Positions 7,220 to 12,555 of a DNA stretch of 12,555 nucleotides are shown piece by piece. The first letter of the stretch is position 1. Every line of letters begins with the position of its first letter. The notes below the pieces were generated by a model. That model was not told where the DNA came from. It saw only the letters and a program-made list of their open reading frames with translations, and ran no database searches. Both the position numbers and the translations under genes were made by a program. This DNA is from a virus (taxonomy: Duplodnaviria > Heunggongvirae > Uroviricota > Caudoviricetes). Where the stretch lies: positions 1 to 12,555 of IMG/VR virus record IMGVR_UViG_2606217107_000010. One strand, written 5' to 3'.

Positions 7220-7555
7220 ATGAAGTGGATTGTGATTGATACAGTTATCCAGCCATCATGCGGAATATCTTTTTCAGTCATATGGAGTAAAATAAAATTA
7301 ATAATCTGGTATCAATCGGATGCTTTCTTACCTCCTGAAAGTATATTTACACTGACTCACACAGGCATCATGCTCAATAACAAAGTGCTACCTGTAACCA
7401 TTTACAACGTAGTACCATTCAATAAAACATTCTGGAATTTAATCAAAAACAGCCAGGAATGCCCTACAAATACAGATAACGTATTGAATGAATGCTTTAA
7501 TAACCGTTGCACTCTGCAAATATGTCCTTATGGGCTAAAACAACAAAGTCCATAA
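7220..7555 (+). CDS. hypothetical Cys-containing protein (111 aa) in an AT-rich slot, antisense to the late operon
   Basis: ATG at 7220 with SD GGAA 5 nt upstream; low-GC codon usage; five Cys residues; no family recognised. Could be a spurious ORF in AT-rich non-coding DNA. Confidence 0.25.
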
Positions 7556-7575
7556 GGAGTTTACTCACATCTGAC

Positions 7576-7610
7576 AAAATCAATATAAACAGCCCCTCCG
7601 GAGAGGGGCT
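7576..7610 (-). terminator. intrinsic terminator-like hairpin downstream of the tRNA cluster
   Basis: Stem AGCCCCTC (7591..7598) pairs with GAGGGGCT (7603..7610), loop CGGA; on the minus strand it is followed by a T-rich run (complement of 7576..7590). Confidence 0.45.
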
Positions 7611-7846
7611 GGAGAGTGGCGCTATGTGCCATTGCATGGTGCCGGGTGCCTCCCGGTGAATTCAGTACCAGCACCTGAATCCGCGATTATCCCATATACC
7701 TACTCGCTGATTGCCCCTCCGCACAGGGGGATTCACCATGCCAGTTTCTTTTAACAAACTCCCCGCAAACCAGACAACAGTCAACCGCCTGAATTGTGAG
7801 ACATTTAAAAAAAAGGCCCACAAAAGCGAGCCAGGGAAAATAAGTG

Positions 7847-7923
7847 TGGCGCGTTGTACTGGATTCGAACCAGTGACCGATTGCTTAGAAGGCAATTGCT
7901 CTGTCCGGCTGAGCTAACAACGC
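7847..7923 (-). tRNA. tRNA-Arg (anticodon UCU)
   Basis: Manual fold of the minus strand: GCGTTGT-TA-GCTC-AGCCGGAC-AGAGC-A-ATTGC-CTTCTAA-GCAAT-CGGTC-ACTGG-TTCGAAT-CCAGT-ACAACGC-G-CCA. Cloverleaf with T-loop GGTTCGAATCC, anticodon loop CU-UCU-AA, and encoded CCA. Confidence 0.85.
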
Positions 7924-7936
7924 ATGATGCAGATAA

Positions 7937-8013
7937 TGGACCGCCATCGGGGACTTGAACCCCGCGCAACCAGCTTCGAAGGCTGGCGCTCTTTCCTGAT
8001 GAGCTAATGGCGG
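7937..8013 (-). tRNA. tRNA-Arg (anticodon read as UCG)
   Basis: Minus strand CCGCCAT-TA-GCTC-ATCAGGAAA-GAGC-G-CCAGC-CTTCGAA-GCTGG-TTGCG-CGGGG-TTCAAGT-CCCCG-ATGGCGG-T-CCA. Canonical stems; anticodon assigned by manual folding only. Confidence 0.75.
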
Positions 8014-8020
8014 TATGTGA

Positions 8021-8096
8021 TGGTGGCCCTTGCTGGATTTGAACCAGCGACCTGGCGATTATGAGTCGCTCGCTCTCACCACTGAGCTAAAGGGCC
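8021..8096 (-). tRNA. tRNA-Ile2 / Met-like (anticodon CAU, ileX/ileZ-type)
   Basis: Minus strand GGCCCTTTAGCTCAGTGGTGAGAGCGAGCGACTCATAATCGCCAGGTCGCTGGTTCAAATCCAGCAAGGGCCACCA; nearly collinear with my recollection of E. coli ileX (lysidine-modified CAU reading AUA). Confidence 0.85.
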
Positions 8097-8145
8097 GGGA
8101 GCAGAATAATAATGGTGCGTAATTAATTCTGCAATCTCATCCGTT

Positions 8146-9195
8146 TCAAACGATTAAATCCTGAACTTCCCTGACTGTCTGCTCAAAACGTCCGGTCTCC
8201 AGTTCAACGCCAATCGCACGACGCCCGAGCGCCAGTGCAGCTTTTACCGTTGAACCTGAGCCCATAAAAAAATCTGCAACCAGGTCTCCCGGACGACTGC
8301 TTGCGCTGATTATCTGCTGCAGCATTTCTGCCGGTTTTTCGCACGGATGTTTCCCGGGATAGAACTGCACCGGTTTATGTGTCCACACATCCGTGTACGG
8401 CACCTGCGCCGTCACACCAAAATACCGCCGCAGATGCTTATATTCACTCTGCAGCTCCACATACTGCCGGTTCAGTGACGTATACGTATCCACCAGCTGG
8501 TGGTGGGGCTTTTCCAGTTCACCGCGCTGATGTTTCTCTTCTGCCACCCGGGCAAACAGCGACTGTAATTTCAGATAATCGCTTTCGTTCGGTAGCTGCC
8601 ACTGACTGGCACTGAACCAGTGCGGCACCATGTTTTTCTTTCCTGTGGCATCTGCAATCTGTTTTGCCGTTATCCCCAGGGCAGCGCGCGCATCACGAAA
8701 GTAAGCAATCAGCGGGGCCATCACATGCTGTTTCAGTGCCCTGCCCTTCGCCTCATACCCGGCATCTTTCGGACGATACGGCCCCTGATAATGTTCCGCG
8801 AACAGAATGCGCTCTGTGGCGGGGAAATACGCCCGCAGGCTTTCCTTGTTGCATCCGTTCCAGCGTCCGGACGGCTTCGCCCAGATAATATGGTTCAGCA
8901 CACTGAAGCGTTCACGCATCATGATTTCGATATCAGATGCCAGGCGATGACCACAGAACAGGTAAAGACTTCCGGCAGGTTTCAGCACCCGCCAGAACTG
9001 CGCCAGACACTGGTCCAGCCACTTCAGGTAATCATCGTCGCCCTTCCACTGGTTATCCCAGCCCTCGGGCTTCACTTTAAAGTACGGCGGGTCCGTGACT
9101 ATCAGGTCAACAGAATTTTCGGGTAACGACCGGATAAATTCCAGGCAGTCGGCGTTGATTAACTCACAACTGGATATTTTTACAGTATTAAGCAT
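8146..9195 (-). CDS. DNA methyltransferase (beta-class N6-adenine/N4-cytosine MTase, DPPY motif), apparently orphan
   Basis: 349-aa ORF with motif IV DLIVTDPPYF near the N-terminus and motif I FFMGSGST near the C-terminus (beta-class order). No adjacent restriction endonuclease ORF. Confidence 0.9.
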   Translation of the reverse strand: MLNTVKISSCELINADCLEFIRSLPENSVDLIVTDPPYFKVKPEGWDNQWKGDDDYLKWLDQCLAQFWRVLKPAGSLYLFCGHRLASDIEIMMRERFSVLNHIIWAKPSGRWNGCNKESLRAYFPATERILFAEHYQGPYRPKDAGYEAKGRALKQHVMAPLIAYFRDARAALGITAKQIADATGKKNMVPHWFSASQWQLPNESDYLKLQSLFARVAEEKHQRGELEKPHHQLVDTYTSLNRQYVELQSEYKHLRRYFGVTAQVPYTDVWTHKPVQFYPGKHPCEKPAEMLQQIISASSRPGDLVADFFMGSGSTVKAALALGRRAIGVELETGRFEQTVREVQDLIV

Positions 9196-9333
9196 GGATC
9201 ATTAAGCCTGTCTCTGATAGGCTCATTCTGCTTTTGCGCAAAGCAGATGGGCCTGAGGTTTGCTTGTGACCCCAACGCATGAGCAGATGGCTGGCAGGTG
9301 CCGCTAACACCCACCAGCCGCCCATTACCACAA

Positions 9334-9359
9334 ATAAAAAAGCCTTCAGGGCTGAAGGC
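9334..9359 (-). terminator. intrinsic terminator overlapping the stop codon of the small upstream ORF
   Basis: Stem GCCTTCA (9342..9348) pairs with TGAAGGC (9353..9359), 4-nt loop; A-run at 9334..9341 on the plus strand gives a U-run after the hairpin on the minus strand. Confidence 0.5.
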
Positions 9360-9543
9360 GTCTGTAACAACCGAACTGATAATCTGCCAGACCCGCCATA
9401 ACAAGCTGAGTCAGTATTAACTGGCAGCGTTCACGTGAAAGGTAAGTATTCTGCGCAATTTCCCCGACAGTCGCCGGTTCGGTGACGCTCAATTCATTAA
9501 ACACCACTCTGGCGGTTTCGGTCATATCTTGCTGTTTTAGCAT
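9346..9543 (-). CDS. small hypothetical protein, possible winged-helix DNA-binding fold (65 aa)
   Basis: MLKQQDMTETARVVFNELSVTEPATVGEIAQNTYLSRERCQLILTQLVMAGL...; start chosen at the ATG at 9543 with SD AAGGGAAA (six-frame ORF begins at 9567). Helix-turn-helix-like segment TVGEIAQNTYLSRERCQLIL. Fold assignment is speculative. Confidence 0.45.
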   Translation of the reverse strand: MLKQQDMTETARVVFNELSVTEPATVGEIAQNTYLSRERCQLILTQLVMAGLADYQFGCYRRLQP

Positions 9544-9664
9544 GTCTTTTTCCCTTCTGGTTAACATGACATACCAATAACTCTTGTCTAAAAAGCCAGC
9601 AAGATAAAAAGTCAGTATTCACGACCACCAGCGTGTTTACTGTACTGCACCAAGTTTACAGGTA

Positions 9665-9688
9665 CAAAAAACCCGCTCAGTGGCGGGG
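9665..9688 (-). terminator. intrinsic terminator-like hairpin, candidate tR' of the late operon
   Basis: Stem CCCGC (9672..9676) pairs with GCGGG (9683..9687), loop TCAGTG; the A7 run at 9665..9671 gives U7 immediately after the hairpin on the minus strand. Confidence 0.45.
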
Positions 9689-9822
9689 TTAAGTTGTGTG
9701 GCGAAGTAACCACTCTTAACAGATTAAGATAAAATTTGCGGACCGCGGTAATTTTTTTTGCTAAATTAAAGCCATATAAAAAATAAGATCCATAAGAAAT
9801 TATTAGTATACTAAGGTTTAAC

Positions 9823-10764
9823 ATGGCTACTATTGCGCAATCAAAGAAACAAAAAAAACTTAAAATTGGTTTTTACACCAGCAGTTCTGGGACTATCCGC
9901 AGCCATTCAGTTGCTAAGCAAGCAATTGAAAATCTGTATAATACTTGCGTAACCGTTACGAATAATCATTTTGATACCATCTATAGAAATAAAAAGTTAA
10001 AAATAGCTTTTATAAATAAAGATACAAAAGCTAAATATTTCTTCGGCTACATGTCATGCTCACGAGAAGAGTATCTCCTTCCTTATATTGGTGATGAACA
10101 CTGGAATGAGCACAACATACCACTAGATGATAAAAAATACATAGTCGAAAGAACCTATTTTTTATATTATTACGATAGTGATATTTTAATATTAACTCAA
10201 AATCATCTTGGGCCGAAAGAATCGGATTTAGCTTATCTGCTTTACAGCCAGAGTGGTAATCCTGGAAATAACTTTTCATTCCAAGCCATCTGGAAAAAAG
10301 AGAGCGTCAAAGAGCTACTTGAAACAGGAAGTACTTTGAGAAGTTGTGATATTGTCCTGGCTGCTCCCAGGAACTTTGATGCAACAAATTACCAGCTAAA
10401 TAGTTCATTTTCTAAGGAACTGGTAAATATGATGGTAGGGCTGGGTGGAACACGTCTCAAGTTAAATCTAAGGGGACGTGCATCAGGGAGAGTAAAAGTC
10501 AAAGGTTATTTATCAGATCTCGTTAAGGATGGTATTAAAGAACTCCTTGAAAAAATGCCGGGAATTGTAAAAAAAGCGGCAGTAACACAGCCCAAAAATA
10601 CCGTTGAACAAAGTCTTCTTGATCAGGTACTCATTTCAGAAAAAAACATATATACCGTTAATGGTTATGGCACTGATAGTGATGTTCTGCAAGCCATGAT
10701 TTCTGCTAAAATTGATAACAATGAATACCTTAAGCAATACGATATCAGCAAAAAGAAGGTATAG
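9823..10764 (+). CDS. hypothetical soluble protein (313 aa), first gene of a low-GC two-gene insert; possible RexA-like sensor
   Basis: ATG at 9823 with SD AAGG 6 nt upstream; strongly AT-rich codon usage, unlike the flanking phage genes; opposite strand to the late operon. By-eye motif resemblance to my recollection of lambda RexA (GFY near the N-terminus; LDD...GPxxSDLxxxL block). Unverified. Confidence 0.8.
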   Translation: MATIAQSKKQKKLKIGFYTSSSGTIRSHSVAKQAIENLYNTCVTVTNNHFDTIYRNKKLKIAFINKDTKAKYFFGYMSCSREEYLLPYIGDEHWNEHNIPLDDKKYIVERTYFLYYYDSDILILTQNHLGPKESDLAYLLYSQSGNPGNNFSFQAIWKKESVKELLETGSTLRSCDIVLAAPRNFDATNYQLNSSFSKELVNMMVGLGGTRLKLNLRGRASGRVKVKGYLSDLVKDGIKELLEKMPGIVKKAAVTQPKNTVEQSLLDQVLISEKNIYTVNGYGTDSDVLQAMISAKIDNNEYLKQYDISKKKV

Positions 10765-10767
10765 GAT

Positions 10768-11211
10768 ATGTTATTGAAATACTTAAGAAACCTGATTGTA
10801 AGTGTTTTTTGCACCTTGTTCCTACTGAGGTATATCCCTCAGATGGGGCATGCTGACATACTTACAGCCTCCGGGGTTATTTCAACTGTATCCGGTATTT
10901 TATTTGGTTTTATTTTAGCCACAATATCAATTTTTAGTGCTGCTAGCGAAAACTCAAATGGAATAATAAAAGCATTAAAAAACAACAACATACTTCAAGT
11001 TATTATTGTAAATCTATTAACCGCAGGTGCATCTTTAATTACGGCATGCGTTATTGCTTTGATAGCAATGTTTGCCAATGAAAAGACATTGTTACATGGA
11101 GAAAAAATAGAATTTATTTTAATTATCGAATCTTTATCTCTTCTTATCATTTCAGTAATAACTTTTGCCTTTACATGGAGAAAAGTAAACTGGATACTCC
11201 CCCACATTTAA
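10768..11211 (+). CDS. hypothetical four-TM membrane protein (147 aa), second gene of the insert; possible RexB-like effector
   Basis: ATG at 10768, 3 nt after the stop of the upstream gene, with SD GAAGG. Four hydrophobic segments (about residues 8-22, 33-58, 74-101, 113-136). A LRYIPQ motif before TM2 recalls FRHYIPG in my recollection of lambda RexB. Confidence 0.8.
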   Translation: MLLKYLRNLIVSVFCTLFLLRYIPQMGHADILTASGVISTVSGILFGFILATISIFSAASENSNGIIKALKNNNILQVIIVNLLTAGASLITACVIALIAMFANEKTLLHGEKIEFILIIESLSLLIISVITFAFTWRKVNWILPHI

Positions 11212-11234
11212 AAAGGGCAGAAATGCCCTTTTTT
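11211..11234. terminator. bidirectional intrinsic terminator between the convergent insert operon and gene Q
   Basis: AAAAGGGCA-GAAA-TGCCCTTTTTT: stem 11215..11219 pairs with 11224..11228, GAAA loop, with an A-run before and a T-run after. Serves both the plus and minus strands. Confidence 0.65.
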
Positions 11235-11597
11235 CTACTCCATTTCAAGTTTAACATCCAGCATTGAAAGGCATCCATCAATAAACCCTTCAGCCATCTG
11301 TATCTCTATACGTATCAATTTCTCATCTTTTTTGCGAGCTCTTGCAAGCTTTCTTTTCGAGATGCCATACAGGTAATGGGCCACAATCAAAGAATGCTCG
11401 TACGGTTTTCGCTTTTTAAGAAGAGCAAGACAACCTTCAATAATTAATGCATCACTATCTGAACAAGCCTGACGTGTTTTGCTTGTATAGGGAAGAAGCC
11501 CTTTAAACCCAGCAGCTATAGGAGAATAGTCTACTCCTGAACTATCACTCGCCGCCCATGCTCCCCAACGATCCAGAACCATTTGAATATCACGCAT
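11235..11597 (-). CDS. Q: late-gene antiterminator Q (phage 21 / Stx-phage Q family)
   Basis: MRDIQMVLDRWGAWAASDSSGVDYSPIAAGFKGLLPYTSKTRQACSDSDALIIEGCLALLKK...; N-terminus matches my recollection of Q proteins of Stx/21-like phages. Start at the ATG at 11597 with SD GGAG; the six-frame ORF has a TTG at 11612. Confidence 0.85.
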   Translation of the reverse strand: MRDIQMVLDRWGAWAASDSSGVDYSPIAAGFKGLLPYTSKTRQACSDSDALIIEGCLALLKKRKPYEHSLIVAHYLYGISKRKLARARKKDEKLIRIEIQMAEGFIDGCLSMLDVKLEME

Positions 11598-11614
11598 CAA
11601 CTTTCTCCACAAAA

Positions 11615-12532
11615 TCAGGCCAGCACGCCAATTGCCAGCGCACGATCGATAAAACGAAATATCAGCTCCAGTTGGGAACCATACTTCTCTTCAAATGCCA
11701 CGGTATCCGCATGCAGTTCGTCATGGTGTTTTCTGCACAAAGGCAACACAAAAAGGTCATGCGCTTTTGTACCCATTCCACCCTGACCATGACCAATCAG
11801 GTGATGAGGATCGTCGGCTGGCTTACCACAACATGCACACGGCTGCGTCTTAACCCAGCGCGTGTACTTTTCATTAACCCAGCGACGACGTTTTGGGCGT
11901 AACATAAAAGACTCCGGCGACTCCGGATCCACTTTCAGCGCCAGCACCTTTTTCGCCTTATCCTGGATGATGCTGGTGGCAGTAACCGAAGGCACAAGGT
12001 CACTTTCCCGGGTGACAGACGGCACAACAGGCTTCGGTAATCTCAGGGCCTTACGGGCTGCACTTTCCGGTAAGGCATCCGCCAGATCATTACGAATCAG
12101 CCACCAGCACAGTTCCGGCATTGTCACAACGTGACTGTCATCAAAACCGAGATCCCGACGCACAACAGACAACACCCAGCGGGCACAGTTATCCGTTGCC
12201 ATTGATTCCAGCCGTTCCGTGAACTGATCGCGCAGCTGATTATCGCAGTGCCAGCACAGACGGATTGCACCCGGAGCGTGTCGCATTGTGGTCATGTTCT
12301 CGCTGTGCCAGTCGGAATGAGGCCACTGGCAGCCTTTTTCACGAAGTAACCAGCTTTCAAGACATTCCACGCCACCAGCACGACGGATCACTGCCTCATT
12401 GCGGAACACGGCCCGAACGGCAGGATCATCCGCCAGCGGTTGTGATGCCGCCGGAACGGCACCACTGGCGAAAGATGAATAACGCTCCGGCTCAGGCTCC
12501 AGCAGGACACGCCCCTGCATAAACAGGGGCAT
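11615..12532 (-). CDS. DUF968-domain phage protein (YdfU-like), upstream of Q
   Basis: C-terminal region RWVKTQPCACCGKPADDPHHLIGHGQGGMGTKAHDLFVLPLCRKHHDELH with Cys/His clusters typical of DUF968. The reading frame stays open upstream of the ATG at 12532 to the window edge, so the true start may lie beyond 12555. Confidence 0.75.
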   Translation of the reverse strand: MPLFMQGRVLLEPEPERYSSFASGAVPAASQPLADDPAVRAVFRNEAVIRRAGGVECLESWLLREKGCQWPHSDWHSENMTTMRHAPGAIRLCWHCDNQLRDQFTERLESMATDNCARWVLSVVRRDLGFDDSHVVTMPELCWWLIRNDLADALPESAARKALRLPKPVVPSVTRESDLVPSVTATSIIQDKAKKVLALKVDPESPESFMLRPKRRRWVNEKYTRWVKTQPCACCGKPADDPHHLIGHGQGGMGTKAHDLFVLPLCRKHHDELHADTVAFEEKYGSQLELIFRFIDRALAIGVLA

Positions 12533-12555
12533 CAGCTCTGAACCTGGTCTGAACA

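Follow-up and report, generated by a model that had tools for sequence, protein, structure and literature searches.

The window analysed here is a stretch of Caudoviricetes DNA of 12,555 nucleotides (IMG/VR record IMGVR_UViG_2606217107_000010, positions 1 to 12,555). At positions 9823-11211 it carries a pair of genes, the first encoding a soluble protein of the DUF6731 family and the second a small protein with four transmembrane segments. We consider it likely that the pair is a moron of a cdtI-like lambdoid prophage and serves in phage exclusion (abortive infection), as a two-component module of a remote RexAB type. That the pair is RexAB-like in its evolution and in its structure is very probable. 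Its proposed action as a membrane-effector phage-exclusion system is drawn by analogy with the characterised Rex systems, and is probable to a lesser degree. The original prediction, that a RexAB-like module has diverged strongly and lies close to Q, away from the canonical location, is supported by the RexA fold of the first protein, by the family profiles that connect the second protein to RexB, and by the order of the genes in the operon. The window proteins are not members of the RexA and RexB families in the strict sense of the standard hidden Markov model (HMM) libraries, which do not assign them there. The pair is a distinct sequence family (DUF6731 and its partner) in a new genomic slot, and is not recognised as Rex-like by Pfam, by PADLOC, by RefSeq annotation or in the literature that was searched.

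Gene 1 (9823-10764, plus strand) encodes a basic protein of 313 residues with no hydrophobic segment, a RexA-like putative dimeric DNA-binding sensor. Gene 2 (10768-11211, plus strand) encodes a protein of 147 residues with four hydrophobic segments, which is modelled as a four-helix bundle. It is predicted to lie in the inner membrane and is a putative effector or channel of the RexB kind. The list of open reading frames (ORFs) agrees with the original prediction in the strand and length of both genes and in the gap of 3 nt between the stop of gene 1 and the start of gene 2. The shortness of this gap suggests that the two genes are translationally coupled. Direct reading of the sequence finds a Shine-Dalgarno-like motif ahead of each gene, also as predicted. 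The first is TAAGG at 9812-9816 (plus strand), 6 nt 5' of the gene 1 ATG, and the second is GAAGG at 10755-10759 (plus strand), which lies within the 3' end of gene 1 and 8 nt before the gene 2 ATG. All of the flanking genes are on the minus strand, opposite to the pair, and the AT-richness described in the original prediction is equally clear, with 34.4% GC in the module against 50.2% in the remaining window.

The structure of the gene 1 protein was predicted by AlphaFold2 from a 36-sequence alignment, giving a usable model with a predicted local distance difference test score (pLDDT) of 80.4 and a predicted template modelling score (pTM) of 0.70. The model was put through two independent structure comparisons, and in both of them lambda RexA (8TWQ) is the sole strong match. 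Foldseek places RexA first, in a full-length alignment (E 3.3e-8, probability 1.00), and the recombination-associated DNA-binding protein RdgC (PDB 2OWL) second (E 1.4e-4). The paper describing the RexA structure lists RdgC, IML3 and CHL4 as structural relatives of RexA. The list of matches is therefore coherent, RdgC being one of RexA's own published relatives. The order of the structural elements in the model also agrees with the published topology of RexA: there is an N-terminal multi-stranded sheet with helices up to around residue 145, then a middle β-α-β-α-β-α-β unit at approximately residues 150-255, and finally a C-terminal strand and helices that rejoin the first domain. The predicted fold of gene 1 is that of RexA, namely a split globular β-sheet domain interrupted by a dimerisation domain of a four-stranded sheet and helices, as in RdgC.

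The place of RdgC as the second-best structural relative does lend something to a quite different explanation, that the pair has no role in defence. Gene 1 would then be an RdgC-like modulator of DNA transactions, either anchored to a membrane protein or paired with one, or the pair would be a generic lysogenic-conversion moron, such as an exclusion factor that blocks injection or a factor for host fitness. The lack of any defence HMM match for the window proteins fits such a reading, as does the presence of lipoprotein morons in the same slot of related phages (described below). However, the structure score of RdgC is far weaker than that of RexA, and the gene for RdgC, a ring-forming protein, stands alone on the chromosome and lacks a membrane partner. 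We regard this explanation as rather improbable. It should be added that a direct identification of gene 1 as an RdgC ortholog was considered, and was rejected on the basis of the much weaker fold score and the absence of a match to the Pfam RdgC family (PF04381).

At the level of the sequence family the resemblance of gene 1 to RexA is weak but consistent. A comparison of profiles by hhalign, using an 80-member alignment of DUF6731 proteins, aligns this family with the RexA family over 59 collinear columns (95-155 against 81-143, P 0.0033). The alignment pairs the conserved positions L, D/E, L, F, G-P, D-L, aromatic-L and P, and spans the block GP-x3-DL-x3-L. Its score of 27.8 is higher than that of the reversed profile (16.3) and of every RexA profile in a set of 160 local shuffles (mean 14, standard deviation 2.2, maximum 20.4). 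The claim that gene 1 resembles RexA is supported both by a structure match that is strong for RexA only and by a motif block that scores above every shuffled null. The short motifs named in the original prediction are indeed present: GFY in gene 1 corresponds to MKNGFYA in RexA, GPkeSDLayLL in gene 1 to GPTTSDLTDFL in RexA, and RYIP in gene 2 to HYIP in RexB. The predicted isoelectric points are both basic, at 9.25 for gene 1 and 8.61 for RexA, which is consistent with a putative role in DNA binding.

For gene 2, an AlphaFold2 model built from a narrower alignment is a four-helix bundle with a pLDDT of 83.7. The relationship of its family to RexB is seen in a chain of profile searches. An HMM made from the window-type enterobacterial partners, run against a background of 607 ORFs in which noise begins at E ~1, retrieves distant partners of DUF6731 proteins from Vibrio (5e-28 and 4e-27), from the Pseudomonas phage AUS531phi (9e-8) and from the metagenomic contigs L043 (1e-7) and L034 (2e-6). 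Four such bridging partners of DUF6731 proteins match the PADLOC RexB HMM, and do so collinearly (2.9e-5, 9e-5, 1.6e-4 and 1.1e-3), while the Pfam RexB model matches one bridging partner with E 0.036. The searches agree in both directions. With a profile of the whole partner family, the first five matches outside the family are all RexB (best 7e-4), and a RexB profile in turn has partners of DUF6731 proteins as its first four matches outside the family (best 2.3e-5). Finally, hhalign aligns the partner family with RexB over 62 collinear columns (19-85 against 20-85, P 0.0016), with a score that is reached by none of 200 local-shuffle nulls in which the positions of the hydrophobic segments were preserved. 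The core that is common to the partners and RexB consists of the second transmembrane segment (S-x-x-S/A-G-T/I-L/M-...-A-A/S-x-S/T) and a short helix that follows it. As judged from these profiles, the gene 2 family of four-transmembrane proteins and RexB are related in both directions of search. The agreement in size, in topology and in the order of the genes points the same way, and the proposed resemblance of gene 2 to RexB holds on evidence that is transitive as well as reciprocal.

A number of results weigh against the reading of the pair as a RexAB-type exclusion module, and are collected here. The global template modelling scores (TM-scores) between the gene 1 model and RexA are only 0.35-0.39. 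The crystal structure of RexA is of a closed conformation, differing from the open one that AlphaFold predicts (as noted in the RexA structure paper), and a hinge motion between open and closed forms could be the cause of the low scores. In the profile comparison, the RexA alignment had only five members. The probabilities reported by hhalign are low (9.6% for RexA and 15.9% for RexB), and the comparisons of the first, narrow alignments with single or narrow Rex profiles were weak (P 0.084 and 0.027), improving only once distant members had been added. In searches of HMM against sequence, DUF6731 and RexA find each other only with non-significant values (E 0.2-0.3 in both directions), although each is the other's best match outside its own family. 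Among PDB sequences there is no match for either protein by single-sequence search, nor with the 36-sequence profile. The RexB HMM (Pfam PF15968/PADLOC) has no match to gene 2 itself at E<=1, and a Foldseek search of the gene 2 model against BFVD gives no RexB-like match, the best being to an uncharacterised protein (E 0.015). A consensus scan finds no plus-strand promoter 5' of gene 1; in a relaxed scan of the same region the best candidates have 8/12 matches, one of them too near to the ATG. Two published observations belong to the same side of the balance. In the mycobacteriophage Butters the roles of the soluble and the membrane protein are reversed (PMC12894663), and lambda RexA binds DNA non-specifically and shifts the bistable switch to lysis without RexB (PMC11077077).

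The RexA HMM (Pfam PF15969/PADLOC) likewise has no match to gene 1 at E<=1, nor to any of the 80 members of the DUF6731 alignment, the lambda RexA control giving 9e-110. Pfam, NCBIfam, PADLOC and PHROGs supply no functional name for the window proteins beyond DUF6731 and two PHROGs of unknown function (7651 for gene 1 and 8552 for gene 2), and no defence model was matched. The checks of HMMs and structures against Rex and defence families, which the original prediction had proposed, are positive for RexA by structure and for RexB by way of family profiles, and negative for direct matches to Rex or defence models in Pfam, NCBIfam and PADLOC, and for BFVD.

The closest known system is lambda RexA/RexB itself, which excludes superinfecting phages such as T4 rII by a membrane depolarisation that RexA triggers and that requires RexB. 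In both there is a soluble basic protein of about 300 residues followed, in the same order, by a protein of about 145 residues with four transmembrane segments (313 and 147 residues in the window, 279 and 144 in lambda), and the gap between the genes is short in both (3 nt in the window and 15 nt in lambda). Both pairs are borne by prophages and have a GC content below that of their surroundings. To these general features can be added the two-domain RexA fold and collinear motif block of gene 1, and the reciprocal relationship of the gene 2 family to RexB. There are also differences. Sequence identity is only ~10-15%, the window proteins do not match the curated RexA and RexB HMMs, and gene 1 is longer than lambda RexA by 34 residues. 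The location is different too: the lambda pair belongs to the immunity region, where it follows cI and shares its transcript, whereas the window pair lies between Q and a putative late promoter, opposite to the late genes.

Only five Rex-like systems have been described, according to a 2026 paper (PMC12894663). RexABpp of the Pseudomonas putida prophage P1 (PP_5643/PP_5644; PMC12894663) has been dissected by experiment, and a clamp-like dimer around DNA and a ring-shaped oligomer are reported for it. It differs from the window pair in that RexBpp has at least 181 residues, against 147 for gene 2, and in that its genes are near a cI-like repressor. No Pseudomonas putida member was found among the DUF6731 family representatives that were looked up. 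The actinobacteriophage systems (Sbash gp30/31, CarolAnn gp44/43 and Butters gp30/31) are, by their published description, similar to the window pair in being two-gene systems of temperate phages that consist of a soluble and a membrane protein. The RexA homologs among them form dimers and bind to DNA without specificity. They are dissimilar in that their hosts are Actinobacteria.

The example of Butters raises the question of which of the two proteins is the effector. On the reversed logic of Butters gp30/gp31 (PMC12894663), the soluble protein would be toxic or antiviral, and the membrane protein would restrain it until infection. The computed results assign no role to either protein, which leaves room for such an arrangement. 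On the other hand, the effector is the membrane protein in lambda, Sbash, CarolAnn and P. putida (PMC12894663), and it is to lambda RexB in particular that the gene 2 family is related. It is improbable that the window pair operates in this reversed manner.

Two further systems were compared. PADLOC contains a candidate defence system, PDC-M67, to which distant members of the family have some likeness: seven of the 80 DUF6731 members weakly match PDC-M67A (best 7e-4), and two partners weakly match PDC-M67B (0.017 and 0.093). The window proteins themselves have no PDC-M67 match in PADLOC. Kiwa, in which a four-transmembrane KwaA is combined with KwaB (DUF4868), was considered and rejected. There is no PADLOC match to Kiwa and no DUF4868 match in Pfam, and the membrane gene comes first in Kiwa, which is the opposite order.

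The pair is not restricted to the window, although its family is small. With the Q region of Enterobacteria phage cdtI the window shares 99.5% identity, and the pair is annotated there as orf54 and orf53, both "hypothetical". The full pair is present in 25 of 5,426 complete E. coli genomes, and is named in RefSeq as "DUF6731 family protein" and "hypothetical protein". Gene 1 matches Pfam DUF6731 (PF20505) with 41.4 bits, against a gathering cut-off of 27 (E 1.7e-10), and 68 of its 80 aligned relatives also match this family. A word-indexed search identified 45 homologs of gene 1, the lowest at 38% identity, and an exhaustive profile search identified 230 DUF6731 representatives (clusters at 50% identity) among 1.84 billion, all of them single-domain proteins of ~285-325 residues. 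The named members come from Serratia, Yersinia, Pectobacterium, Cronobacter, Pantoea, Xenorhabdus, Citrobacter, Klebsiella, Vibrio, Aeromonas, Shewanella and Pseudoalteromonas, and also from E. coli and Pseudomonas phages. A profile scan of genome contigs with the DUF6731 alignment gave only three loci, and a related-locus search for RexA returned loci that are nearly all identical to lambda. The entries for DUF6731, PHROG 7651, PHROG 8552 and PDC-M67 give no function and no link to Rex, and the searched literature makes no mention of DUF6731 or PDC-M67.

This distribution disposes of the suggestion that the two ORFs arose by chance in an AT-rich spacer, or are decayed remnants there, and have no functional product. 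The unusual base composition is the only feature that speaks for it. The same-length homologs, which are 38-87% identical across Enterobacterales and Vibrio and have 29 invariant columns, the confident structure predictions for both proteins, and the conserved operon architecture all speak against it. The suggestion is effectively refuted by conservation, and has almost no likelihood left.

It is worth noting that in two phage genomes, ON470608.1 (vB_EcoS-733R5) and ON470622.1 (vB_EcoS-716R3), a DUF6731 gene 87% identical to gene 1 is labelled "portal (connector) protein". This label is almost certainly a misannotation.

In every genomic context that was examined, the DUF6731 gene is directly followed, on the same strand, by a gene for a hydrophobic partner of ~134-161 residues. 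The contexts include E. coli alleles at 44% identity (L001-L004), Citrobacter (L010), Pectobacterium (L005 and L006), Xenorhabdus (L011 and L012), a Vibrio island (L007 and L008), metagenomic contigs (L034 and L042-L044), a Vibrio mobile element (L046) and the Pseudomonas phage AUS531phi (L045). In one of the Pectobacterium loci (L006) the partner ORF is present and is simply uncalled in the annotation. In several hosts the module forms an insert of low GC content.

Two of these contexts are particularly informative. In AUS531phi the DUF6731 gene (Pfam E 8.6e-13) and a RexB-like partner lie immediately 3' of a repressor of the Cro/CI family, which is the canonical position of rexAB. Since a member of the family holds this post-cI position, the site close to Q in the window is one to which a module of this kind has moved. 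On the metagenomic contig L043 (647-3759) the pair directly adjoins the abortive-infection module AbiEii/AbiEi, with genes for Rep_1 and DUF4145 nearby, in what looks like a defence island or a plasmid. In the Vibrio element (L046) the pair follows the integrase gene.

The annotation of the AUS531phi partner (MN585195, L045:4797-5282) may need correction. It is given as a coding sequence of 118 residues (4926-5282), in an ORF of 161 residues that starts at 4797. The true start probably lies further upstream than the one annotated, because the 161-residue ORF aligns with the family across the N-terminal helix.

In enterobacterial lambdoid prophages the position of the pair is fixed: it is always found directly after Q, and convergent with it. 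Module proteins that are only 44-46% identical stand beside Q genes that are 84-85% identical, which implies allelic replacement of the module within a fixed slot. The slot also accepts other genes. In PhiR40_1 (L040:1227-1673) it is occupied by an AT-rich lipoprotein gene (37.6% GC) on the opposite strand, which is unrelated to the module, and in Ayreon (L039:2668-3093) by another unrelated AT-rich lipoprotein gene. The interval from Q to the late leader is therefore a variable cargo site.

These observations also bear on the possibility that the pair has a RexA/RexB-like ancestry and has as its main job the life cycle of its own prophage, with the DUF6731 protein biasing the switch between lysogeny and lysis, or biasing late expression. 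In favour of this, the module directly adjoins both Q and the putative late promoter, and the effect of lambda RexA on the bistable switch, noted above, provides a precedent. However, the pair is also found outside lambdoid regulatory regions, in the Vibrio island, beside the integrase of the Vibrio element and as the neighbour of AbiE, and the membrane partner is always retained. Moreover, the alleles of the module diverge much faster than Q, which fits an arms race better than regulation. On this evidence we consider a main role in the prophage life cycle unlikely. Regulation of the switch, a reversed logic, and an RdgC-like or generic moron are each less likely than an exclusion module of the RexAB type.

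The module is bounded on both sides by transcription signals. At its 3' end there is a bidirectional intrinsic terminator at 11210-11233 (both strands), with a 10-bp stem and a GAAA loop, which serves both the module and the convergent Q. The hairpin has the sequence AAAAAGGGCA-GAAA-TGCCCTTTTT, with folding energies of -13.4 (plus strand) and -13.0 kcal/mol (minus strand), and is flanked by an A-run and a T-run, giving a U-run on each strand. With about -13 kcal/mol on either strand and these flanks, it has the genuine shape of a bidirectional terminator. A simple terminator scanner did not pick it up, and it was by folding that the strong bidirectional terminator claimed to be shared with Q was confirmed and placed. 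One of the E. coli alleles (L001) has a different strong hairpin (-27 kcal/mol) at the equivalent position. On the other side of the module, the terminator scan located the tR'-like hairpin that had been described there. It is an intrinsic terminator at 9666-9687 on the minus strand, with the sequence CCCGCCACTGAGCGGG followed by T6 (hairpin 9687-9672). Exactly the same sequence (100% identity) occurs in mEp460, Ayreon and Stx2c phages, and the Ayreon record marks it as a terminator.

Upstream of this terminator is a promoter-like region with a leader at 9700-9765 on the minus strand (ATTACCGCGGTCCGC...CTGTTAAGAGTGGTTACTTCGCC), a putative late promoter pR' and initial transcribed region, which forms the left edge of the cargo slot. 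The region is kept in the window and in L001, and partly in one of the Pectobacterium loci (L005) and in PhiR40_1, despite their differing cargo. The window (9700-9765, minus strand), L001 (5838-5975) and L005 (5860-5960) have in common the element ATTA(C/G)CGCGGTCCGC...TG(T/A)TAAGAGTGGT, with an inverted repeat GCGG-N-CCGC, and the prophages that share it carry adjacent modules that are only 44-62% identical. The element probably serves this family of Q as its late promoter and Q-utilisation leader, and from conservation and position we infer that 9700-9765 and 9687-9672 are pR' and tR'. The location given in the original prediction, between Q and the late operon, is thus correct and can be refined: the module is between Q and the putative late promoter, with the promoter-like region starting near 9765. 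Since the module lies between Q and this putative promoter, and faces Q across the bidirectional terminator, late transcription does not cross it.

On the basis of the analogy with lambda RexAB and P. putida RexABpp (PMC12894663), the following mechanism can be proposed. The pair would be expressed in the lysogen from its own promoter. The RexA-like protein, which is basic and probably dimeric, would be a sensor that binds DNA non-specifically. On infection by another phage, this sensor would activate the membrane protein, which would oligomerise into a channel, or damage the membrane in some other way, so that the membrane potential and ATP collapse. Growth would then stop, and the infection would be aborted. 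After induction of the prophage, antiterminated early-right transcription may run antisense into the module and silence it, although this last step is speculative.

A broader hypothesis, which we put forward tentatively and think more doubtful than not, is that DUF6731 and its four-transmembrane partner form a large unrecognised branch of the RexAB superfamily, with at least 230 clusters at 50% identity in Gammaproteobacteria and beyond, and including PDC-M67. In enterobacterial lambdoid prophages this branch would have settled in a dedicated cargo slot between Q and the late promoter. On induction it would be silenced there by convergent antiterminated early-right transcription, which would run antisense through the shared terminator, as a built-in switch for self-immunity. 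The cI-linked rexAB of lambda achieves the same end in a different way.

RexAB is the oldest known abortive-infection system, and its trigger and mechanism of activation are still unresolved. If the present interpretation is true, it provides a function for DUF6731, a family of ~230 clusters at 50% identity, and exposes a blind spot of the defence finders that rely on HMMs. It would also offer a set of naturally diverged module alleles (44-87% identical), in a phage background that is tractable in E. coli, with which to map the recognition by the RexA-like sensor. In addition, it would mark the stretch from Q to the late promoter in lambdoid prophages as a swappable cargo slot that is worth mining.

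The genes that surround the module are as follows. Beyond the shared terminator is the antiterminator Q itself (11235-11612, minus strand; Pfam PF06530, E 5e-52), convergent with the module, and beyond Q a DUF968/HNH gene (11615-12532, minus strand). The other flank has an ORF of 73 residues (9346-9567, minus strand) and an N6/N4 DNA methylase gene (8146-9195, minus strand), and further minus-strand neighbours are three tRNA genes and genes for a NanS-p-like esterase, and then for a holin, a lysozyme and Rz. The tRNA genes, Arg(tct), Arg(tcg) and Met(cat), are at 7847-8096 (minus strand), 3' of the methylase gene. Such a tRNA cluster is typical of the late regions of Stx-like phages.

Three other small ORFs in the window deserve mention. 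Between the tRNA cluster and the gene for the NanS-p-like esterase there is a second AT-rich island (31-34% GC), with an ORF of 111 residues opposite to the late genes (7220-7555, plus strand). It has no Pfam match, and lies at the position of stx in Stx phages. An ORF of 90 residues (4150-4422, plus strand), also on the opposite strand and with no Pfam match, is situated between the lysozyme gene and a DUF1327 gene, overlaps the latter by 35 nt, and may be spurious. Finally, near Rz there is a gene (1736-2077, minus strand; 42-43% GC) for a lipoprotein-like protein of 113 residues, with a signal ending in LVMGC and a TonB C-terminal domain (E 1e-14). It is roughly at the position of Bor in three of the E. 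coli loci (L002-L004), and may be another moron.

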